DNA from: an uncultured virus (IMG/VR IMGVR_UViG_3300025809_000016)
Taxonomy: Duplodnaviria > Heunggongvirae > Uroviricota > Caudoviricetes
Virus record (IMG/VR): IMGVR_UViG_3300025809_000016
DNA length: 20,000 nt
Direction: 5' to 3' (one strand)
Shown here: piece after piece, positions 10,407 through 19,559 of the stretch
Layout of the letters: each line of letters opens with the position of its first letter
Numbering within the stretch: position 1 is the first letter of the stretch
The notes under the pieces: generated by a model
Database searches by the model: none
What the model was told of the DNA's origin: nothing
The model's input: the letters and a program-made list of their open reading frames with translations, nothing else
Position numbers and translations under genes: made by a program

Positions 10407-11084
10407 ATGTATTTCATATCAGCACCTTTCGGAAACTATATAAAGACGAAAAGCACTATCAGTGTTACAGGTAGCTGGACTCTTGAGCCTCGTCCGGGAT
10501 TAGTAAAGCAAGTCGTGAAGACCTTACGCTATACTAAGACTGGATGGAGGAACAAGATTGGCTTACGTAACAAAGGTATTGACTACGCTGTAGCAAGACA
10601 CAAACGAGGAGATGTGATGAGCCTCGCAGCAGGAGAAGATTGGCTAGGCCTGTATGAGAAGGTAAGCCCTTATGCCAGTGTGGAGATTAATATCAGCTGT
10701 CCTAATTTGGATAAGCAGGTAGGTCAACTGGTGGAGGGTTATGATCTCTGGCCTAAGACAGATCGTGAGTGGTGTATAGCTAAGATCTCACCGTTGGCAG
10801 ATGAGGCCCTCGTTGATCAGTTGGTATACGCAGGCTATACGACTATCCACGCAAGCAACACACTACCTTCTGATAAAGGAGGTCTAAGTGGTAAGCTGCT
10901 GGTACCGTATACTATGAGGCTATTAGACTACATTAATAAGAACCATCCCCACGTAGAGGTCATAGCTGGCGGCGGTGTCACTTGTGAGCAGGATGCAGAG
11001 GACTATATGAACGCAGGTGCGGATCATGTCAGCCTTGGTACTGTTTGCTTTACCCCTTGGAAGATAAAAGGAATAGTAGGATGA
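10407..11084 (+). CDS. pyrD: Dihydroorotate dehydrogenase-like FMN oxidoreductase (minimal, 225 aa)
   Basis: NKIGLRNKG, EINISCPN (class 1 catalytic Cys), AKISP, SNT, GGLSG, IAGGGV, AGADHVSLGT. AGGAG RBS. Confidence 0.82.
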   Translation: MYFISAPFGNYIKTKSTISVTGSWTLEPRPGLVKQVVKTLRYTKTGWRNKIGLRNKGIDYAVARHKRGDVMSLAAGEDWLGLYEKVSPYASVEINISCPNLDKQVGQLVEGYDLWPKTDREWCIAKISPLADEALVDQLVYAGYTTIHASNTLPSDKGGLSGKLLVPYTMRLLDYINKNHPHVEVIAGGGVTCEQDAEDYMNAGADHVSLGTVCFTPWKIKGIVG

Positions 11085-11194
11085 TGCACTTAATAGCAGT
11101 AGCGGCCTTTAACCTGTTGGTTATCGTCGCAGTAATCGGGGTTGTAATAGGCCCTTTCTATGCACGTAAACTTTACAAGGAGAAACAACTATGA
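11081..11194 (+). CDS. 37-aa single-pass membrane protein
   Basis: MMHLIAVAAFNLLVIVAVIGVVIGPFYARKLYKEKQL*. ATGA overlap with pyrD, AAGGA RBS. Confidence 0.6.
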   Translation: MMHLIAVAAFNLLVIVAVIGVVIGPFYARKLYKEKQL

Positions 11195-11289
11195 TAATGT
11201 TGATACTACATGTTGTAGCAATTTGTACTATGCCAGCAGCGTTATTCGTAACGATACCGCTTCACATACTGATAGTGTCTGTCTCTTGA
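11191..11289 (+). CDS. 32-aa hydrophobic peptide
   Basis: MIMLILHVVAICTMPAALFVTIPLHILIVSVS*. AAGGAG RBS and ATGA overlap. Confidence 0.6.
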   Translation: MIMLILHVVAICTMPAALFVTIPLHILIVSVS

Positions 11290-11417
11290 GACTCTTAGTG
11301 GCAGTAGTGTTAGTGTTGCTAGTGGGCTGCGCATCACCCTCTCCCTTTGTATTAGGGGAAGAGGTTCAACCACCAACAGGCTGTAGAGAAGGCCGAGAAC
11401 GAGGAGTAGACTGTTGA
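11286..11417 (+). CDS. Small lipoprotein (43 aa)
   Basis: TTG start overlapping the previous TGA. MRLLVAVVLVLLVG-C lipobox; mature part ASPSPFVLGEEVQPPTGCREGRERGVDC. Confidence 0.65.
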   Translation: MRLLVAVVLVLLVGCASPSPFVLGEEVQPPTGCREGRERGVDC

Positions 11418-11809
11418 GTAATGTAAGTAAGAAGCTACTACAGAAGATCTTGAGGAATGTACATTTCAGGTTTGACTACACCTATGACGATGACCAGTAT
11501 GGCGGTGAGCACTGGCCCGATGTGGATATGCTAGGCGGTATTCCTACTGGTCGAGATGAGTTCAAGGATGACTGTGATGGTTTCGCCTTGATGTGTCGTG
11601 CTAAGTGCAGGGAAGAGGGTATACGTAGTAGGTTGGTATTCTGTAGGACTAGTAACGGAACAGGACATTTGATCTTAGAGGTCGATGGCTATTTGTTAAA
11701 TAACATACACAAGTGGGTTATGACTGCTGATCAGTTGCCTGACTGGGAGTTCATTAGTATTAGCGGATTCGAAACAGGAGACCCTTGGCATAGAATTGTA
11801 ATGGATTAA
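11414..11809 (+). CDS. Transglutaminase-like cysteine peptidase (C93/BTLCP-like) catalytic domain
   Basis: Y..DDDQYG.EHW, DDCDGFA (Cys), GTGHLILEVDG (His), LLNN. GAGGAG RBS before TTG. Confidence 0.78.
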   Translation: MSNVSKKLLQKILRNVHFRFDYTYDDDQYGGEHWPDVDMLGGIPTGRDEFKDDCDGFALMCRAKCREEGIRSRLVFCRTSNGTGHLILEVDGYLLNNIHKWVMTADQLPDWEFISISGFETGDPWHRIVMD

Positions 11810-11865
11810 ACTATAAGAGATAGGACATGGACGAGCATATAATGAACCAATACAAGGACTAGTTA

Positions 11866-12294
11866 ATGTATACATACAAAGTAGAGATAGTAAGAGTAGT
11901 AGACGGAGATACAGTCAGGGTCGATATTGACCTCGGCTTCGATATGTGGATGAGGGATGTATCTGTACGCTTAGAAGGTATAGACACTCCGGAATCCAGA
12001 ACTAGTGATCCAAAGGAGAAGTATTACGGTCAACTGGCTAAAGAAGCACTGGAGGACATCATGGACAATCGTGAGATCTTCTTGAACGTCTCTGGAACTG
12101 GTAAAGATAAGTATGGTCGTATCTTAGGATACTTCTTGTATAAGTCTGACGATGTAAACGCTAATAGCATTAATGCACACTTGGTAGAGATGCACCACGC
12201 TGTCTCTTATTACGGACAGAACAAAAACACTATCAGGGCATCTCATATGCTTAACAGACGAAAGCTAGAAGAAGCGGGGTATGAAGGATGTTAG
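11866..12294 (+). CDS. Thermonuclease (staphylococcal nuclease-like)
   Basis: RVVDGDT, RLEGIDTPE, DKYGRILG. Confidence 0.92.
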   Translation: MYTYKVEIVRVVDGDTVRVDIDLGFDMWMRDVSVRLEGIDTPESRTSDPKEKYYGQLAKEALEDIMDNREIFLNVSGTGKDKYGRILGYFLYKSDDVNANSINAHLVEMHHAVSYYGQNKNTIRASHMLNRRKLEEAGYEGC

Positions 12295-12383
12295 CAGATA
12301 TCGGGATGTTAGTCTTGGCAGTAGTGGTTTTGCTGGTAAACTTATACGTGGTAAAGGTAGCTATATTTGATGAAGATGAATGA
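12288..12383 (+). CDS. 31-aa single-pass membrane protein
   Basis: MLADIGMLVLAVVVLLVNLYVVKVAIFDEDE*, overlapping the nuclease stop. Confidence 0.5.
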   Translation: MLADIGMLVLAVVVLLVNLYVVKVAIFDEDE

Positions 12384-12480
12384 AGAAGATTCGGGATACG
12401 AGTTTACAATAACTATAATCGTTTACACTTGTACAGCATTGGGCTTTATTGCAGGGCTGTTAATAGGAGGAACACAATGA
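12376..12480 (+). CDS. 34-aa single-pass membrane protein
   Basis: MNEEDSGYEFTITIIVYTCTALGFIAGLLIGGTQ*, with ATGA overlap into the next gene. Confidence 0.5.
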   Translation: MNEEDSGYEFTITIIVYTCTALGFIAGLLIGGTQ

Positions 12481-12641
12481 GCAAGGATAGAGTAAAGGAC
12501 ATGAATGATCTACGAGTAAGGATCCAGAAGATGAAGAAGTGGTTTAACGATAATAAGGAGTTCATCGTTGACATCGCTAAGTCTGTTGTGCGAATCATCA
12601 AACAAAAATACAACGAAAGGAAAAACAAGAATGCTAAGTGA
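12477..12641 (+). CDS. Small basic hypothetical protein
   Basis: AGGAGG RBS before ATG 12477 (MSKDRVKDM...). Confidence 0.7.
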   Translation: MSKDRVKDMNDLRVRIQKMKKWFNDNKEFIVDIAKSVVRIIKQKYNERKNKNAK

Positions 12642-12909
12642 TTGTAACATTTACCAGATATCTCAGAGTGTTAATAATGACATCGGTGCCATTGTTGAAG
12701 CTCGGGTGATCGCTCGATCTTCTTATGAAGCAGCTACTCTCCATCCACGTGGTGGGACAGCTGTGTTAAGAAGGGAACAGTGGAGACGTTATGCTTCTGA
12801 TGATCAATGGTGTGCTGTTCAAGACGTCTCAGTGAGGCTTGTGGGTATCGCTTGTTCTAGTGCTAAAGCTGGTAAGGTTATTATGATTGCTAAGGGTAGA
12901 GGAGTATGA
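12631..12909 (+). CDS. Hypothetical protein
   Basis: AAGGA RBS before ATG 12631 (MLSDCNIYQISQ...). Confidence 0.7.
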   Translation: MLSDCNIYQISQSVNNDIGAIVEARVIARSSYEAATLHPRGGTAVLRREQWRRYASDDQWCAVQDVSVRLVGIACSSAKAGKVIMIAKGRGV

Positions 12910-13208
12910 CAGAAGAAGAGAAGGCTAAAGCCAGAGACGAGAAGAATATGGACATCGTGATCAGGTTTGCCAATGATATGCACAGTGTCTCTTTTGATGA
13001 GCTCTATATGGCAGACAGAGAGGCCAACTATGAGTTACGCAATCAGAAGGTCAGGCACAGTTATTTCTGCGCTATGAAGGCAGTAGGTAATACTACTCAG
13101 GAGATAGTAGATAGCTGTGAGATAGACTTGCTCAAGGCTGAAGGAGTCAAGGGAGCAGTGACCACTATGCTAAAGGTTAAACATCAATACACACAAGAGG
13201 AAGTATAA
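12906..13208 (+). CDS. Hypothetical protein
   Basis: GAGGAG RBS and ATGA overlap. Confidence 0.75.
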   Translation: MTEEEKAKARDEKNMDIVIRFANDMHSVSFDELYMADREANYELRNQKVRHSYFCAMKAVGNTTQEIVDSCEIDLLKAEGVKGAVTTMLKVKHQYTQEEV

Positions 13209-13483
13209 TGAGCTGGGACTTAGTATTAGATTTTGCAGAAGATGAAAGTAAGATCACTGTAACACAACTGGCGAGATGTCTTGCTAAGTCTGAGGAGGAT
13301 TTAGAATACGCTAGGGAGATGATGGATCTAGTCAAGAACAAACGTGGTGAGTTCAGCAACAGTGTCTATATAGAGGCCTGTAGGGTTCATCGTGATCTTT
13401 ATAGGTTAGTCGCATCGTTAGGGATTATGCTCGAGCACAAACAACTAGTAGATGACTATGATGCTAAAGGTGAAGATAGTTAG
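13208..13483 (+). CDS. Hypothetical protein
   Basis: GAGGA RBS and TAATG overlap; last gene before the non-coding block. Confidence 0.75.
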   Translation: MSWDLVLDFAEDESKITVTQLARCLAKSEEDLEYAREMMDLVKNKRGEFSNSVYIEACRVHRDLYRLVASLGIMLEHKQLVDDYDAKGEDS

Positions 13484-13496
13484 GTAACGTAAATAT

Positions 13497-13567
13497 GCCC
13501 CACACAACACTATCTTTGCCTAATGGCATTGATGGTGTTGTGTGGGGCCTTTAACGCTTTTTTTTTT
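13497..13567 (+). terminator. Long hairpin plus T10 tract closing the left gene array
   Basis: GCCCCACACAACACTATC (13497-13514) pairs with GATGGTGTTGTGTGGGGC (13531-13548; one G-U). Inner TGCC-TAAT-GGCA, then CTTTAACGC and ten Ts. Confidence 0.75.
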
Positions 13568-13607
13568 GGTATAGTATAAGGTCAGTGTTTAGTCATTATG
13601 CTAACCT

Positions 13608-13727
13608 AAAAACCCAAAAGTAGAGAGTAGAAATCCAAAACTAGATATTTGAAAATCCAAAACTAGATATCCAAAAACTCAAAAGTAGAGAGTGGAAAAT
13701 GATATCTAGATATTTGAAAATCCAAAA
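13608..13727. repeat. Interleaved A-tract direct repeats
   Basis: CTAGATATTTGAAAATCCAAAA perfect at 13641 and 13706; AAATCCAAAACTAGATAT at 13631 and 13653; CAAAAGTAGAGAGT at 13615 and 13680. Confidence 0.9.
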
Positions 13728-13989
13728 TAAACACATAATCATTACTAAAATACCCAGAAGGGCTATGACATCTCATTACAATCTATTCTGTATTTATTAC
13801 CAAACTATACACAATCTTAACACAATCTATCTCTATTTCTCTTAGGAAAATCACTCCATCCTTAATGAAACCATTAACATAATCCCCTCATCCTTAACAC
13901 CCTACATACCATAATCATACCATATTATGTTTAAGGTTATGTTATAGTTATGTGTTAAGGTTAGGTTATAGGGGATGATTAAAGACAAT

Positions 13990-14118
13990 ATAGATGAGGC
14001 ATTAAGGACATTAAGGCCATTAATGAGGGGGTTATATGGCATACATGGGCATAGGTGGGTATAGATGGCATAGATGGCATAGATGAGGCATTAATGGGCA
14101 TTAATGGCATTAATAGCC
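13990..14118. repeat. Degenerate 9-11 bp tandem repeat array
   Basis: Units ATAGATGAGGC, ATTAAGGAC, ATTAAGGCC, ATACATGGGC, ATAGATGGC x2, ATAGATGAGGC, ATTAATGGGC, ATTAATGGC. Confidence 0.85.
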
Positions 14119-14143
14119 CTAAGTCACTTGAACCAAGAATTTA

Positions 14144-14160
14144 TTCTATAGAGTGATCAA
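14144..14160 (-). promoter_or_regulatory. Phage-specific promoter-like motif, copy 2 (antisense)
   Basis: Reverse complement reads TTGATCACTCTATAGAA. Confidence 0.65.
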
Positions 14161-14649
14161 TCGTATCTCTATGAAATGTAAGGTGTTTGTTTAGGGATAA
14201 ATACTAAGAAATCTGGGAAATGGTTAGTAAAGACTTATCATAATCACATAGGACATGGGGGAATCTAATCCATAAGTTACAGATTTGATGGGTCTAGATA
14301 GGTGGGAGCATTAGGGACATTCTTGGGCATTCGTGGTCATTGGTGCCACTTTGTTTATCCTCTCCAAAATCTGAGAAGAACAGATCACTATCTAATCGCG
14401 TGCGAAAAGTGATTATTATGCCTATAAGGGATTTTATCAAGTCGTTCCCACAAAGCCACGTATAACCACGGATGCTCTTTTTATGGTACACTCTTTCATC
14501 TATGACCAACAGTATCACATACACCACATCTGCCCCACCCATACACTAAGGATCATCGATGCCACCATTGCCCAGAGGTGGCCACTATGGAGCACTCATG
14601 AACACTAATGCTATCGATGCGGGGTATATTCGTGTGGATGAGAGAATAG

Positions 14650-14724
14650 GGAGCATAGGTGAGCATAGATAATTTACGAGGGATTGGTGGCATTGGTGGA
14701 CATAGGTGGTATTGGTGGCAGGGG
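14650..14724. repeat. Short G-rich repeat array
   Basis: GAGCATAG x2, then ATTGGTGG / ATAGGTGG x4. Confidence 0.7.
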
Positions 14725-14893
14725 TGAAGTTAGGCAAGTGTAGTCTCGATGCCCCCCATTGGGCCCTTTTCAAAAATGGATACCTGATCCATCTTGTGTG
14801 CAAAAAAATCGATTTTGAGAGAGGACTTTTTTCACGAGATTTTATCACTGAGAATGTGGCGATAAACCTTATAATACATAACAGTATGTTGAT

Positions 14894-14917
14894 CGATCAC
14901 TCTAAAGAACAACCAAC
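14894..14917 (+). promoter_or_regulatory. Phage-specific promoter-like motif, copy 3
   Basis: CGATCACTCTAAAGAACAACCAAC, upstream of the AGGAGG RBS of the GIY-YIG gene. Confidence 0.7.
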
Positions 14918-14952
14918 CCCTAAACTCACTCGCCCCACCAAGGAGGCCACTA

Positions 14953-15732
14953 ATGACAACTATGCCACAAGAAACACACATGCTCTATCGCTGGTCTCGC
15001 TCTACGGGAGAATACTACATCGGTATCCACTCAGGAACCAACCCTGACACTGATGGCTATATTGGCTCTGGTGTTTTGTTTTTGAAGAAGTTCGATAACA
15101 CTCCGAGAGAACAATGGACAAGAGAAGTTATCTTCTTTGCTACCAGAGAGCTTGCAGAGAACATAGAAGCGTTCATCGTTGATGAAGATACCCTTGATGA
15201 CCCTCTGTGCCTCAACCTTGTCATCGGTGGTGGTAAAGGTTCAAAAGGAATGAAGGTGTCTGATGAAACCAAGGCAAAGATAGGCGCAGCTCAATTGGGC
15301 AGGAAGCGCTCTGCTGAAACCAAGGCGAAGATGTCTGCTGCTATTAAAGGTAAAACCTTGGGCAGGAAGCACACTGATGAAGCCAAGGCAAAGATGTCTA
15401 TTGCTAACAAAGGTGCTAATAACTCATTCTACGGCAAAACACACACTGATGAAACCAAGGCCAAGATATCCGCTGTTAAGAAAAGCCAGAATAAGAAGAT
15501 GCCTGATGAACAGAAAGCGAGGCTATACGCTATCCACAAGGGCAGCAAGCAAACGGAAGAAACTAAAGCTAAGATAGGCGCAGCTCACAAAGGTAGCAAG
15601 CGTACAGAAGAAGCTAAAGCCAAAATGAAAGCAGCAGCAGCCCTCAGATACCCTTGTGCTCACTGTGATGCTATGATGAGCGCATCTAAGATCGCCGTTC
15701 ACCACAACGACAAATGTAAACACAAACCCTAA
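14953..15732 (+). CDS. Free-standing GIY-YIG (Seg-like) homing endonuclease with NUMOD3 repeats
   Basis: LYRW...YYIGIH...DGYIGSG...REVI...E...CLNL..GG nuclease domain; about 7 (H/R)(T/S)xExKAK(M/I) repeats; C-terminal CAHC...HHNDKC. AGGAGG RBS. Confidence 0.88.
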   Translation: MTTMPQETHMLYRWSRSTGEYYIGIHSGTNPDTDGYIGSGVLFLKKFDNTPREQWTREVIFFATRELAENIEAFIVDEDTLDDPLCLNLVIGGGKGSKGMKVSDETKAKIGAAQLGRKRSAETKAKMSAAIKGKTLGRKHTDEAKAKMSIANKGANNSFYGKTHTDETKAKISAVKKSQNKKMPDEQKARLYAIHKGSKQTEETKAKIGAAHKGSKRTEEAKAKMKAAAALRYPCAHCDAMMSASKIAVHHNDKCKHKP

Positions 15733-15761
15733 ACTATAACCCACCCTTAAGAGACCCCAAG

Positions 15762-15902
15762 ATGATCACCCTACTATCTAGCTTAATGCTAGCAACCATA
15801 ATATTCGTGAGCTCAGTACTAAACACAGAACAACCACAACCGGGGCGCGTACCATCGTTCTTCACTAAGATCCAAGATACCAAGGAACAAGATGATGGCT
15901 AA
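15762..15902 (+). CDS. Possible 46-aa membrane/secreted peptide
   Basis: MITLLSSLMLATIIFVSSVLNTEQPQPG...DDG*. Fills the gap but has only a weak RBS. Confidence 0.35.
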   Translation: MITLLSSLMLATIIFVSSVLNTEQPQPGRVPSFFTKIQDTKEQDDG

Positions 15903-16518
15903 CACAAATTCAACCGCTACACCCGTACTTGTATCACCCCATACAAAACAACGGTGCAACTTCTGTCAGACCGATAAGCTCTTGAAGGAGTTTGGGAAAG
16001 ACGCGACAAAAAAATTGGGTTGCCGCAACAAATGCAAGGACTGCCACGCTCAGTATCTCAGAGATAGGCGAGAGAAGCATAAGAAACTCCCTCCAACTAC
16101 TTTGCCTTTTGCGTGCTCAACTTGTAAGGTTGTGCTTCCCTTGGAATCATTTAATAAGAACGCAGGAAATTTGAATGGCTATGCAAATGTTTGTAAGGAC
16201 TGCTCGAAGCCGTATAATCAGCACCAATCCTTCAAGAGGTACTCTGTGCGCCGTAAGAGGAAGCAGACGACACTAGTGAAACGTTTTTGTACGAGGTATG
16301 GATGCTCTGTGTGCTCTTATAAAGACAACCCAGCCGCATTGAACCTTTATTCTCCTACAACCCATAAACACATCTCAACAGTGGGCAGTGTTGACAACTT
16401 GAAGAAAGATATCAGGTCATATACTGTGAGATGCCACAACTGCCAAGCAATCCATCTTGACTCTATACCAAGACCCGGTGAAAGAGAAACAAGTACGCAT
16501 AACCCATTCGTTCGATGA
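15892..16518 (+). CDS. Zn-finger repeat protein with degenerate HNH endonuclease domain
   Basis: Two CxxC...F......CKDC repeats, then CSVC.Y....AAL...CHNCQAIH, matching the phage HNH scaffold. AAGGA RBS. Confidence 0.75.
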   Translation: MMANTNSTATPVLVSPHTKQRCNFCQTDKLLKEFGKDATKKLGCRNKCKDCHAQYLRDRREKHKKLPPTTLPFACSTCKVVLPLESFNKNAGNLNGYANVCKDCSKPYNQHQSFKRYSVRRKRKQTTLVKRFCTRYGCSVCSYKDNPAALNLYSPTTHKHISTVGSVDNLKKDIRSYTVRCHNCQAIHLDSIPRPGERETSTHNPFVR

Positions 16519-16526
16519 GCATAGAT

Positions 16527-16564
16527 GCCCCTTATTGACATTCGTGTTGATGAGGGGCTTTTTA
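16527..16564 (+). terminator. Intrinsic terminator
   Basis: 14-bp stem GCCCCTTATTGACA / TGTTGATGAGGGGC (3 G-U pairs), TTCG loop, then TTTTTA. Confidence 0.85.
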
Positions 16565-16659
16565 TCGCAACATCAGTGGCACTAGTGACATCGGTGAAGA
16601 TACCGAAGGCGCGTCTAGCGACTGAGGGGAGTTTTTAGGTTTTGTTCGCGCACAGGAGT

Positions 16660-16676
16660 TTGATCACACTATAGAA
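16660..16676 (+). promoter_or_regulatory. Phage-specific promoter-like motif, copy 4
   Basis: TTGATCACACTATAGAA; the ACACTATAGAA core is identical to the SP6 promoter core. Confidence 0.72.
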
Positions 16677-16712
16677 CGTATTGATCACCCCTTGGTACGT
16701 ATGGCACTAAAA

Positions 16713-16729
16713 TTGATCACACTATAGAA
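16713..16729 (+). promoter_or_regulatory. Phage-specific promoter-like motif, copy 5
   Basis: TTGATCACACTATAGAA, identical to copy 4. A half copy TTGATCACCC lies between them at 16681. Confidence 0.72.
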
Positions 16730-16961
16730 AAACTTCTTGTTATTAATGCTATTAGTGTTATTAATGCACATATATGCCATTGATGACCTTAGGGGGTCTT
16801 ATAACTACCACCACCCTCAATGTCATATATGAAGTTGATCGTTCTTATCCCCTATACCCTATACCATAACCCAATAAAGCCTAGATGCTATAATGACTTA
16901 GAGATCCCCACAAGTGTTTCTCTAAACCACAATCCCCCCCTTCCTTAAAAAGGATAACCTT

Positions 16962-17636
16962 ATGTTTAACTTTGATGGTGCAGATATAGCAACAATCATA
17001 AGTGCAATATTGGGATTAGTGGGTGCCGTTGCAGCTACCCTATTCGGTAAGAAACATCTAGAGAAGAAGGAAGAACTGATTTCTGCTCTCCAAGCCCCTA
17101 CTACAATAGACCACTCCACCTTGTCAGATTTCTTACAAGAGTGGGAAGAATTAGAAGCAAGTGTAAATCATCTTATAAATAACTCAGCGATAGATGCTGT
17201 AGTGATTTCAAAAGCATTTACTATGCCCGGAGGTACCAGTCTTGTTTGGGGTGCCTCTGTCCACTCAACCCCGCCTTATGACAGTTATCTGTCCTTGAAG
17301 GTAGAAAGAGTTGAGCTTGACCAAAGATACAAAGATATAATCGAGGCAGTATGTATGAAAGGCCACTATGTCATTGTTACCAAAGATGAACCAGAAAGCC
17401 TACTTAAAACCAGATACGAAGCAGCTGACATCGCTTTCAGCTCTTGGTTTCATGTTATCGACGAAGATGTCCTCCACGATGTCTCTGTGACTACTACTAT
17501 CGGTTTCCTCAGTCGCGACAAATTCTACAACCCATTTGATAAGTTCCTACTAGCTAGGTGCCAGTCTATTGCTTCACGGGTGAAAGTTGCCGCACTTACA
17601 TTTAACCCTAAAGGACGTATTAGACATGGATATTAA
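16962..17636 (+). CDS. N-terminally anchored membrane protein, candidate holin
   Basis: One TM (IATIISAILGLVGAVAATLFG) + KKH, followed by a ~185-aa alpha/beta soluble domain. AAGGA RBS. The holin call is inference. Confidence 0.5.
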   Translation: MFNFDGADIATIISAILGLVGAVAATLFGKKHLEKKEELISALQAPTTIDHSTLSDFLQEWEELEASVNHLINNSAIDAVVISKAFTMPGGTSLVWGASVHSTPPYDSYLSLKVERVELDQRYKDIIEAVCMKGHYVIVTKDEPESLLKTRYEAADIAFSSWFHVIDEDVLHDVSVTTTIGFLSRDKFYNPFDKFLLARCQSIASRVKVAALTFNPKGRIRHGY

Positions 17637-17907
17637 CTTCTTAGTGGCTATCGGTGGATGGCTCCTGTCTTTCGGACTTGTGTGCGCACAAGCTACCTAT
17701 TGGTGGTGGAACCGCGAAGAAGAAGACATGCACCAAAGAATATGGACTCAAATAGTCGCTCTTGATATGAAGGTCTCCCACAACTATGACGCAGTGAAAG
17801 GTATCAGAGAGGCCAATCGTAAGAAAGCTCTCGAAGATAGGATACCTGCTAACATACGAGATCTCTCCAAAGATGAGATCGTTGCGCTGTGTAACAAATA
17901 CTTATAA
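17626..17907 (+). CDS. Single-pass membrane protein, candidate i-spanin
   Basis: ATG 17626 with AAGGA RBS. N-terminal TM, helical C-terminus, Cys near the end. Confidence 0.5.
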   Translation: MDINFLVAIGGWLLSFGLVCAQATYWWWNREEEDMHQRIWTQIVALDMKVSHNYDAVKGIREANRKKALEDRIPANIRDLSKDEIVALCNKYL

Positions 17908-17923
17908 CTCAAGGAAAACAAAA

Positions 17924-18121
17924 ATGTACTACTTAAGACTAATAACACTGACCCTCGCGCTTGGTCTCTTAGCTTCTTGTGCTGCCTCACGTGGCACTCT
18001 TGAAACTATGGCTCTCGAATGTGGCGATGTCAAATATGAAGCGATAGTACCATTCTTCGGTTCGTTCTCATACGGACGTACAAGAGATTGTGCTACGCCA
18101 GAAGCTGCCAAGGAGGGCTAA
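17924..18121 (+). CDS. Lipoprotein, candidate o-spanin
   Basis: MYYLRLITLTLALGLLAS-C lipobox, AAGGA RBS, two further Cys. Confidence 0.65.
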   Translation: MYYLRLITLTLALGLLASCAASRGTLETMALECGDVKYEAIVPFFGSFSYGRTRDCATPEAAKEG

Positions 18122-18484
18122 ATGTCCTTCTACCACTTCACAAGATTGGTAGTTGAAGCTCCTCAAGACAAGCCTGACGCTTGGATCCTCTTTGAACCTC
18201 TTATCGTCCTAAAAGACGATGAGGTGTTAATGGAAGTTCCAGTCGGGTTTGTTACGGATCTTGCAAGTCTACCACGAGGGATACGAAGCATTTATTCGAG
18301 AACAGGACGCTCTCGGTATGCCTCCGTAATCCACGATTACCTATATAGCATCAAGTGGTCAACTCGGAAAGAGTGCGACAAGATGTTCAAAGAACTATTA
18401 ATAGCCTCGGGCGTAAGTCGATTCCGTGCTCAGACCTTCTACATGGGTGTCAGAGCTGGAGGATGGACACGCGGACGATGGTAG
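18122..18484 (+). CDS. DUF1353 family protein
   Basis: VPVGFVTDLASLPR, ASVIHDYLY, RKECDKMF, FYMGVRAGG. Confidence 0.88.
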   Translation: MSFYHFTRLVVEAPQDKPDAWILFEPLIVLKDDEVLMEVPVGFVTDLASLPRGIRSIYSRTGRSRYASVIHDYLYSIKWSTRKECDKMFKELLIASGVSRFRAQTFYMGVRAGGWTRGRW

Positions 18485-18531
18485 TACACACCCTTAACCA
18501 CTCACTAAGTCAACACGAAAAGGTATTACAA

Positions 18532-19239
18532 ATGGGCAAGCAGAGAATGAAGAAAGAGAAGAAATTTAAGAAGGAAACTAAGGTTTACCAGACAGAACAC
18601 AAAGTACAACCTATCCTTCCTCAAACCCGCAACCAGCAGGACCTCATCGACGCGATTAACTTTAACGATCAAGTTATCTCTACGGGCTCCGCAGGAACAG
18701 GTAAAACCTTCATCTCAGCAGGTATGGCAGCAGATTGGTATGCTCAACGTGCTAGCCGTAGAATAATCATCACGAGGCCAATGGTGCCAGTCGGAGAAGA
18801 CATGGGTCATCTCCCCGGTGATGTAAATGAAAAGACAGTACCGTGGGCTCTCCCTGTCCTTGACGTTATCAAGCAAAGGGTTGGTGAAAACAAACTTAAG
18901 TGTGACCTAGGTAAATCGATCGAGATCGTTCCACTCCAGATGATGAGAGGGCGTACATTTGATGACGCTTGGATCCTCGCTGATGAGTGCCAGAACCTCT
19001 CAATCCCACAAGCAAAGATGCTCATTACTCGCATCGGCACTAACTCTAAATTACTAATAAATGGCGATCTGAAGCAGAAAGATATCCCGATGGTCTCAGG
19101 CCTTTCGTGGTTGCTTCAGCAAGTCGAACGGTATGATCTCCCAGTACCCGTAGTCGAATTCACGCTAGACGATTGTCAAAGAAGTGACACTTGTAAAATG
19201 TGGCTCGAAGTTATGGAAGCTGAAGACAACCGAACCTAA
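18532..19239 (+). CDS. phoH: PhoH-family ATPase
   Basis: GSAGTGKT, IIITRP, GHLPGD, MRGRTF, ILADECQN, TRIG, NGDLKQKD. True start is probably ATG 18532 (AAGGT RBS). Confidence 0.95.
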   Translation: MGKQRMKKEKKFKKETKVYQTEHKVQPILPQTRNQQDLIDAINFNDQVISTGSAGTGKTFISAGMAADWYAQRASRRIIITRPMVPVGEDMGHLPGDVNEKTVPWALPVLDVIKQRVGENKLKCDLGKSIEIVPLQMMRGRTFDDAWILADECQNLSIPQAKMLITRIGTNSKLLINGDLKQKDIPMVSGLSWLLQQVERYDLPVPVVEFTLDDCQRSDTCKMWLEVMEAEDNRT

Positions 19240-19265
19240 CCCAACCTAATTCAAGGAACACACTA

Positions 19266-19559
19266 ATGTCAAGCTATACAACTATAACCACAAACGGTTT
19301 CCACCCTCTTATCAAAACTGGCGGATCTGACTCCGTAGTAATCATCGTTGCCCTCGCTGCTAATCTCGGTGGTGGAACGGTAACCCTTTCTGCCCATTCC
19401 GATTCCGCTGATCCTGCCACTGTAGAACTTCTCACTGATGGCGCAGCTATTGCTGGTTTCCAGAAGCACGTAGCAGTCGGAAGAGACATGGTATTCGGCG
19501 TAACGGTAGCAGGAAGTACTGCTGCAAGCATAGGTATCACTGTTGCCCTTGCTGACTAA
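19266..19559 (+). CDS. Small beta-rich putative virion protein
   Basis: Gly/Ala/Thr/Val-rich strands (LGGGTVTL; VTVAGSTAASIGITV), AAGGA RBS, immediately upstream of a fibre gene. Confidence 0.6.
   Translation: MSSYTTITTNGFHPLIKTGGSDSVVIIVALAANLGGGTVTLSAHSDSADPATVELLTDGAAIAGFQKHVAVGRDMVFGVTVAGSTAASIGITVALAD

Follow-up and report, generated by a model that had tools for sequence, protein, structure and literature searches.

Predicted promoter-plus-leader modules, paralogous and divergent, flank endonuclease genes in the putative control region of an uncultured phage

What might two look-alike stretches of non-coding DNA be doing, each headed by a predicted promoter and pointing away from the other across a pair of endonuclease genes? 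The question is raised by a 20,000-nucleotide (nt) stretch of an uncultured virus genome (Caudoviricetes; IMG/VR record IMGVR_UViG_3300025809_000016), hereafter ‘the window’, in which an initial annotation picked out a left element, reading leftward from 14160, and a right element, reading rightward from 16713. It offered for the pair a symmetric set of polymerase-driven origins or packaging signals, two related small RNAs, or the inverted ends of a ~3 kilobase (kb) mobile element. We favour a different explanation, which taken as a whole we place slightly on the probable side: that the two are paralogous copies of a single ‘TATAG-class’ promoter-plus-leader module, set back to back in the control region of an uncultured marine podovirus-like phage, a distant relative of Roseobacter phage CRP-7, with the left copy forming a leftward unit, self-contained and non-coding, that would run from 14146 to a hairpin at 13548-13497 and be no longer than 650 nt.

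Both elements begin with a word that we read as a promoter for a single-subunit phage RNA polymerase, because of its SP6-type core, the positions of its copies before start codons and the G-poor leaders that follow. The word, TTGATCACACTATAGAA, is matched with three or fewer mismatches five times in the window (6112+, 14160-, 14893+, 16660+ and 16713+) against 0.12 matches expected, with none of 200 shuffles reaching five, and the phage-polymerase promoters that the initial annotation had placed at the head of each element are upheld by this count. The 10 kb upstream of the window contain a sixth copy, on a viral contig of this phage (G001, locus L032) that is 99.9% identical to the window over the compared stretch, stops at window position 13250, and brings the DNA available for this phage to 30 kb. 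The core of the promoters in this phage, (T)TGATCAC(A/T)CTA(T/A)AGAA, has ACACTATAGAA in common with promoters that we located in the SP6 genome record (where GTGACACTATAGAA is matched six times, each time on the plus strand), and the four plus-strand window copies stand 51-300 nt upstream of start codons, ahead of their G-poor leaders. T7/SP6-type promoters are recognised by a conserved word of ~17-23 base pairs (bp) whose core resembles CACTATAG and closes on the start G, and the word found here is of that form; its copies exceed chance and stand upstream of genes, and the two related phages described below hold five each. Across the three phages, all seven copies of the TATAG type sit in the control locus, and three of the eight TAAAG-type copies lie outside it. 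A scan for sigma-70 promoters, with seven promoter-like sites against 9.5 expected, was uninformative.

The two arms are true paralogues beyond the promoter. They share a promoter block of 28 nt that is 89% identical; starting at 14160 on the minus strand and at 16713 on the plus strand, 24 of 27 bases are the same, and further along ATCCCCTATA(A/C)CCTA agrees at 14 of 15 positions (13962-13976, reverse-complemented, against 16847-16861). These strings and coordinates, as well as the second tandem promoter at 16660, are as the initial annotation had quoted them, and the alignment and significance test that it had proposed bear out the resemblance. Local alignment of the post-promoter DNA scores 40, set against a mean of 20.95 (standard deviation 3.03) for dinucleotide shuffles, none of 1000 of which reached that value; with local scoring of natural tiles, the left arm tops 778 tiles at 40; and when collinear blocks are chained, the left arm scores 36.5 against a mean of 11.9 (standard deviation 2.5) and a maximum of 21.5 for 942 control tiles. 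The chained blocks are the promoter-proximal ATTAATGC repeats, TATGCCAT, ATCCCCTATAxCCTA and CATAAC, and most of the arm-to-arm signal comes from a family of 9-10 bp repeats, ATTAATGC(C) and ATATGCCAT. This family, with the core CAT-nn-(A/G)TG, occupies every non-coding piece of the region; all 12 plus-strand matches to GRCATWNRT in the window fall within 13525-16537, in four clusters (A-D), and a further array, E, lies on the opposite strand (Table 1). Because the leftward promoter, P-, reads left through array A and the rightward promoter P4 reads right through array E, both outward transcripts would start with the same repeat polarity.

Two relatives allow a role to be proposed for each arm; with a set of sequencing-run contigs, they make up a sample of three phages and one contig set. 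The syntenic relative, G002 (locus L160), is an 18.6 kb viral contig retrieved with a degenerate promoter pattern, 10 of whose 25 proteins have counterparts in the window or on the contig upstream of it (primase at 69% identity, AAA ATPase 53%, dCMP deaminase 65%, MoxR 65%, VWA 50%, ClpP 71% and a 183-residue protein 73%). The more distant one, represented by two overlapping viral contigs of a single phage (L027 and L028), has the same promoter family, a PhoH 70% identical to that of the window and, at 24% identity, a homologue of the gene at 16962 that follows the right arm. In this distant phage, tandem promoters 38 nt apart precede the homologue, and behind it come, in order, genes for a holin, an endonuclease, PhoH, a GIY-YIG protein, the terminase large subunit, the portal and a tail protein. 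From this gene order we read the right element as the tandem late-operon promoter with its leader, and the locus as a whole as a control region between DNA-metabolism (middle) genes and late genes for lysis, packaging and the virion.

The left promoter, too, is conserved. G002 17181-17210 and window 14136-14165 are identical at 29 of 30 positions, though the loci are otherwise unalignable (the next-best match outside promoters is 18/19, inside repeats), and we take P- to be the counterpart of the G002 promoter P-b. The DNA behind P-b scores 27 against the window left arm, a value reached by six of 880 control tiles, and 23 against the right arm, reached by none of the 880. In both G002 and L028, a leftward HNH gene has its own leftward promoter in front and a ATTGATCACTCTATAG promoter just behind, so that the leftward units look real in these relatives. 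To our knowledge the phage promoters of T7 all face right, and the initial annotation had reasoned from such one-way facing; the premise does not carry over to this group, G002 having three leftward promoters and the L028 phage two, plus one degenerate copy.

As to where the left unit would end, a hairpin with a 10-T run (13497-13568) is predicted to terminate the upstream plus-strand genes and would likely stop the leftward unit as well; at the corresponding place G002 has a similar hairpin, preceded by an A-run and followed by a T-run. Between promoter and hairpin, GC skew flips from -0.59 to +0.44 near 13925, at the centre of an imperfect palindrome. Sequencing-run data, consisting of contigs from four runs (X1, X2 and X3 among them), add a relative in X2, ~88% identical, that retains 14146-14423 and then diverges leftward, with GGCATTAATG ~20 nt on; X2 contigs also cover 16667-17543, and 14692-15543, at the GIY-YIG gene, has no cover in X2 or X3. 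A low-support joint, 13883>14018, was also seen in run X2.

The initial annotation held that neither element is protein-coding, and our searches agree. There is no credible open reading frame (ORF) in 13484-14952 or 16519-16961; the longest ORFs in the arms are of 31-46 codons, and six ORFs within the arms gave no PHROG match at E ≤ 1. When 16 small ORFs from the non-coding DNA and from between the endonuclease genes were compared with PHROGs at this threshold, 13 had no match, and the remaining three, all outside the arms, had weak ones (E 0.07-0.3); minus-strand ORFs of 82 and 87 residues in 14294-14848 had no family match. A tblastn search for pseudogenes, using window proteins and the relatives’ leftward proteins against the non-coding DNA, returned chance-level matches only. 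Nor does the DNA resemble a known RNA family: the whole window has no Rfam match at E ≤ 1 and no transfer RNA (tRNA) or transfer-messenger RNA (tmRNA), and the predicted transcripts fold with z-scores of -1.56 (4/100 shuffles as good) and -1.45 (19/200 as good).

What lies between the arms differs from phage to phage. On its plus strand the window carries a GIY-YIG gene, assigned to the homing endonucleases by its family match and NUMOD3 repeats, together with a degenerate HNH-like gene; the HNH gene of G002 is on the minus strand; and L028 has an HNH gene and four small ORFs on the minus strand, together with a zinc-finger ORF on the plus strand. At the site where G002 and L028 have LDFDH(L/I)DP in their leftward HNH proteins, the window HNH-like protein (15892-16518) has LNLY--SP; it has lost the D-H, though it keeps its zinc-finger CxxC pairs and the CxNC part of the HNH motif, and is therefore probably not an active HNH nuclease. 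Its gene is 26-33% identical to the leftward HNH genes, and in position it better matches the plus-strand zinc-finger ORF of L028. The promoter before the endonuclease genes, P2 (14893-14917), duplicates P1 (6112-6140) together with the first transcribed bases, at 22 of 23 positions, which suggests that the cassette carries a borrowed promoter. Because the arms keep one backbone position while each of the three phages has its own cargo, the arms belong to the backbone and are not mobile-element ends. The idea of inverted ends of a ~3 kb element is thus not sustained. The related suggestion was to look in relatives for presence, absence or inversion of 14160-16713: P- is kept in both relatives and the late tandem promoters in L027/L028, and the leftward HNH genes are too dissimilar to be the same gene flipped.

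Synthesising these findings, we propose the following model. The phage genes would be transcribed from T7/SP6-type promoters, with the polymerase firing outward from both copies of the module. In the right copy, P4 together with its tandem partner P3 would act as the late-operon promoter, ahead of a G-poor leader of 235 nt. The left copy, P-, would correspond to the promoter that lies, in relatives, just downstream of a leftward HNH cassette with a promoter of its own; the window has no such cassette. The space between the copies could then be seen as a plastic ‘landing zone’ for promoter-bearing endonuclease cassettes, taken up in either orientation depending on the phage, and the repeated promoter modules might provide shared boundaries for cassette exchange, in the manner of PeSL in T4-like phages, promoter-terminator motifs that border variable cassettes (PMC4122927). 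We also speculate that some function in cis accounts for the retention of the orphan leftward copy. Our preferred guess for that function, a promoter-dependent opening of AT-rich DNA for replication, much as at T7 phiOR, strikes us as possible but clearly less likely than not.

Several observations weigh against this model. Both the activity of the promoters and the extent of the units are themselves predictions, no RNA polymerase gene was found in the 30 kb of the window phage, and the sample is small. Arm-to-arm similarity within one genome is seen in the window only; the G002 contig ends before the late tandem promoters and right arm, and L028 ends 47 nt behind P-b. Those 47 nt score 12 against the late leader, a value reached by 71 of 880 controls and not significant. 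With BLAST-like scoring the margin is modest, in that two unrelated coding tiles approach the 40 of the left arm (34 for 12551-12844 and 31 for 12101-12344), because of ATTAATGC-like strings inside them. The first transcribed bases of P-, GAATAAATTCT, are common to the distant G002 and apparently not to the closer X2 relative, which suggests that P- modules may be exchanged between phages and not simply inherited, and this weakens the argument for a selected function in cis. Finally, tblastn found no remnant of a leftward HNH gene in 14161-14890, so that the ‘lost’ cassette of the window could equally be one that was never present.

The likeliest of the other explanations makes the arms a mirror pair of polymerase-primed origins, with P- and P3/P4 transcripts opening AT-rich DNA and priming outward leading strands while the arrays help to load the replisome; this we find conceivable but doubtful. 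A more specific version, in which a split, mirror-symmetric, RNA-polymerase-primed origin would have outward late-class promoters, CAT-nn-ATG arrays that load or position the primase-helicase, and endonucleases in the dispensable gap, seems to us unlikely. In T7, each origin requires a phage promoter, with replication starting at phi1.1A/1.1B or, once these are deleted, at phiOR/phi6.5 (PMC8373140), and that precedent is joined here by T7-like replisome genes, a conserved gene-less promoter and 1.9 kb of non-coding DNA, unusual for a phage. The initial annotation had likened the tandem promoters and the AT-rich DNA behind them to a T7 origin, and there is some likeness: tiles at P4 are 73% AT, where the 95th percentile of window tiles is 68%, and in G002 the locus scan reaches its most AT-rich tile immediately behind P-b (90%; tiles taken over the whole contig go up to 88%). 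The DNA behind the window P-, however, is only 60-70% AT, T7-type primase pentanucleotides show no overall enrichment in the loci, and the repeat units would be on the template strand of transcription, whereas primase sites are expected on the displaced one. Cumulative G-C climbs over ~23 kb upstream and flattens at the locus (window 13380-15500; G002 L160 ~16500), a pattern explained equally well by the change in gene content; we rejected GC skew as an origin or terminus signal, since the flattening tracks gene content and the L027 late genes stay positive. The AAA protein beside the primase was likewise set aside as a candidate initiator, being a classical AAA ATPase and not recognisable as an initiator. 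Alternatively, and with rather little likelihood, the CAT-nn-ATG arrays might be operator-like sites at which a phage or host protein controls both TATAG-class promoters, timing or insulating late transcription, with the left promoter blocking middle-gene read-through head-on. A near-helical period, a partly palindromic core (CATTAATG), the placing of arrays beside promoters and terminator hairpins in all three phages, and three serial terminator-like hairpins (13497, 14333 and 16527) between the middle genes and the late promoters would suit such a scheme, yet arrays B and C are far from any promoter, and no candidate for the binding protein emerged.

The remaining alternatives appear weaker still. 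A pair of repeat-rich non-coding RNAs acting in trans, the small RNAs of the initial annotation, would account for the similar starts, the lack of ORFs and a left unit bounded by a hairpin; we think it very improbable, given that the folds barely beat shuffles, that no Rfam, tRNA or tmRNA match was found, that the right ‘RNA’ would be a messenger RNA leader, and that sequence outside the repeats is not conserved between the window and G002. We give equally little credence to genome ends or a packaging/DNA-entry signal, with the repeats marking a concatemer junction or a cos/pac site near HNH and upstream of terminase. It would fit the long, repeat-rich non-coding region with its A-tract repeats, the place of the G002 region after an endolysin gene and small ORFs, the L027 terminase and portal ~3 kb downstream, and the HNH genes within the locus; set against it are a terminase gene that does not adjoin the locus, the presence in these phages of several further homing endonucleases of HNH-like type, which suggest selfish genes and not packaging factors, and, weakly since contigs cannot show molecule ends, X1 contigs that are unbroken over 11000-19500 at an even depth of 12.6-16, none doubled and with no ends listed. 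Least probable of all, to the point of near dismissal, is a mobile or invertible endonuclease-carrying element of ~3 kb with the arms as its inverted ends. The inverted repeats (~170-220 nt, 2.55 kb apart), the opposite strand of the HNH-family gene in G002 and L028 relative to the window, and X1 unitigs that break at both ends of the HNH-like gene (15873-15902 and 16468-16497) speak for it, whereas the right arm would have a backbone function as the late-operon promoter, the left promoter keeps its place in relatives with other cargo, and the leftward HNH gene is, on its identity, not the window gene turned round. Moreover, no transposase or recombinase was found in the window, no strand-changing joint is listed in the run contigs, the promoter-plus-ATTAATGC pattern had no match when metagenome contigs were scanned, and, among the viral contigs listed as matches, several promoters occur only in G002 and L028. 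Nor does the locus look like a transposon, insertion sequence or miniature inverted-repeat element, having no such gene, no copies elsewhere and no duplicated flank, and its arm similarity runs past the candidate ends.

Table 1. Features of the locus in the window and in its two relatives. Promoters, units and leaders are predictions.
Phage	Feature	Position	Strand	Remarks
Window	Hairpin and 10-T run	13497..13568		24-nt arms, 88% complementary
Window	A-tract-rich direct repeat, ~55 nt, three copies	13608..13727		AT-richest tiles of the locus (75-77% AT)
Window	Imperfect palindrome	13870..13980		centre near 13925; long hairpin in predicted leftward RNA
Window	Left arm, non-coding leader behind P-	13940..14133	-	repeat array A and ATCCCCTATAACCTA
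Window	Array A	about 13985-14122	+	units GGCATTAAT and GGCATAGAT; within left arm
Window	Leftward promoter P-, TTGATCACTCTATAGAA	14134..14165	-	predicted start G 14146; 29/30 match to G002 P-b
Window	Array B	14290..14359	+	ends in small hairpin and T-run (14333-14349)
Window	Array C	14640..14780	+	repeats to ~14730, then GC-rich motif and T-run
Window	Promoter P2, TAAAG type	14893..14909	+	22/23 copy of P1 (6112) including first transcribed bases; predicted to drive the endonuclease genes behind it
Window	GIY-YIG homing endonuclease, tandem NUMOD3 repeats	14953..15732	+	NUMOD3 4.3e-30 (3 stretches); phrog_314 1.1e-36; 5 DNA repeat copies
Window	46-residue ORF, no family match	15762..15902	+	between the two endonuclease genes
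Window	HNH-like zinc-finger protein	15892..16518	+	phrog_2255, 2.7e-15
Window	Array D	16520..16600	+	encloses terminator hairpin 16527-16558 and T-run
Window	Tandem late promoters P3 (16660-16676) and P4 (16713-16729)	16660..16729	+	predicted P4 start 16727; degenerate third copy 16681-16701
Window	Right arm, G-poor 235-nt late-operon leader	16730..16961	+	inverted repeat array E and ATCCCCTATACCCTA (16847-16861)
Window	Array E	about 16740-16800	opposite to A-D	just past late promoters
Window	First late-block gene, 224 residues, no family	16962..17636	+	L027/L028 homologue likewise behind tandem promoters
G002	P-c	16874	-	after last plus-strand genes and A-run/T-run hairpin
G002	GGTCATTAATGG x3 array			between P-c and AT-rich stretch
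G002	AT-rich DNA			between GGTCATTAATGG array and P-b; among the contig’s most AT-rich
G002	P-b	17204	-
G002	HNH gene	17769-17368	-	between P-b and P-a
G002	P-a	17812	-	in front of leftward HNH gene
G002	GRCATAGATG array			right of P-a
G002	Plus-strand promoter	18400	+	then contig end
L028	HNH gene	803-111	-	promoter in front at about 835; 56% identical to G002 HNH
L028	Promoter ATTGATCACTCTATAGG (P-b)	~45 nt behind HNH stop	leftward
L028	Four small ORFs		-	behind degenerate leftward promoter

Some further features of the repeats deserve mention. Array C and its GC-rich motif are collinear with a second array and GC-rich motif in G002, upstream of that phage’s TAAAG-type promoter, and when the locus is scanned in 60-nt tiles, AT content is highest in the A-tract repeat at 13608-13727, at 75-77% the maximum of the window. 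Repeat units of G002 (L160 17021-17050) and L028 (~994-1044) contain TGGTC, a form of the T7 primase word (G/T)(G/T)GTC, and those of window arrays A-D have TGGCA or GGGCA instead; in the primase itself (L032 5915-6400), the zinc-finger residue equivalent to D31 of T7, which contacts the template there, is D in G002 and V in the window phage, a comparison of two sequences that is anecdotal. Within the GIY-YIG protein, 15244-15627 encodes five tandem NUMOD3-type repeats of 17-36 residues, such that a periodic DNA-binding protein adjoins periodic DNA repeats. Stretches resembling the right arm occur in coding genes as well (12160-12178 against 16743-16760 on the reverse strand, 17/18; 12666-12698 against 16753-16786, a 33-nt gapped match), and may be chance or a trace of recombination. 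Run X1 contains a minor variant with a 34-nt insertion at 13608/13609 (depth 3.7 versus 15.4) and a possible 289-nt deletion with a joint at 14601>14891 (depth 2.68, beside 21); variation among strains, in the repeat region as well as in the endonuclease gene, may account for these and for the unitig breaks on either side of the HNH-like gene. Behind P-c, G002 (L160) has a small minus-strand ORF (16560-16808) of ~75 residues from its ATG, with a hydrophobic C-terminus and a GAGGAG ribosome-binding site; it matches no family, and the window has nothing equivalent.

All credible window genes lie on the plus strand. DNA-metabolism genes of this phage include a T7 gp4-like primase-helicase, PolA, a T7-like exonuclease and a ribonucleotide reductase, and it also has a MoxR/VWA pair, ClpP and PhoH; by primase, its closest cultured relative is CRP-7, at 45.6% identity. 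The reductase differs between the two syntenic phages: that of the window is a B12-dependent, class II-like enzyme (78-1946), and its slot in the gene order is taken in G002 by a two-subunit NrdA/NrdB-type with a thioredoxin-like tail (L160 4143-7078). On the upstream contig, the PolA gene is interrupted by an endonuclease VII/HNH-like gene, leaving two PolA ORFs (L032 36-1484, 1521-2000 and 2054-2608).

A search of the phage collection by DNA, in near and distant modes, gave no close relative, and the same was true when the 224-residue protein of the 16962 gene was searched in the phage collection, viral contigs and metagenome contigs; its single database homologue, 95% identical, is on a 1.5 kb contig. 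Loci retrieved through the DHO-dehydrogenase-like and PhoH proteins proved unrelated, having only that one gene in common, and L033-L038, retrieved with a protein alignment, are unrelated phages without the window promoter. Exact and degenerate promoter scans returned, among the matches listed, mostly single unrelated ones (L002-L011, L039-L106 and 18 of the 20 in L163-L182).

Phages that rely on a T7-type polymerase are commonly portrayed as unidirectional in their transcription, their orphan promoters doubling as replication origins (T7 has phiOL as well as phiOR as secondary origins). This lineage would differ in having back-to-back late-class promoters, one of which is kept gene-less in at least two divergent phages with a turnover of endonuclease cassettes in the space between. 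Should the orphan promoter prove to be an origin or an insulator, the T7 model would extend to a widespread and largely uncultured marine CRP-7-like group, and there would be a defined promoter set for a new orthogonal polymerase; were it merely a left-over, the locus would still be a clear case of promoter modules bordering an exchange zone for selfish genes.

How, then, does the locus compare with systems already known? With free-standing homing endonuclease cassettes (GIY-YIG/NUMOD3 and HNH) it has in common two genes that match these families, a first gene with its own promoter and a content that varies, but here the endonucleases are cargo and not arms, and the HNH-like protein is without its D-H. 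Divergent early/late control regions of phages with two transcription arms, of which the gene layout of CRP-7 is an example, likewise have back-to-back promoters at a module boundary, and CRP-7 encodes a T7-like RNA polymerase and has its virion genes on the opposite strand (PMC6918029); the window, in contrast, is nearly all on one strand, its leftward unit is gene-less, and counting of 11-mers found no promoter word in CRP-7. With the replication promoters of T7 it has in common promoters of a single-subunit polymerase, a tandem pair at a module boundary followed by AT-rich DNA, at least one gene-less promoter and a T7-like replisome, with the differences that the window has a leftward member and 9-10 bp repeat arrays, and that its origin activity is putative. 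PeSL of T4-like phages are also short hairpin-terminator and promoter modules at the borders of variable cassettes whose cargo varies between relatives, although they serve the host enzyme where the window promoters would serve a phage single-subunit polymerase, and in the window one pair is inverted and recombination is conjectural. The feature, real and conserved, is best described in terms of known kinds of element: the orphan or replication-type promoters of T7-like phages, and the promoter modules that border plastic regions.

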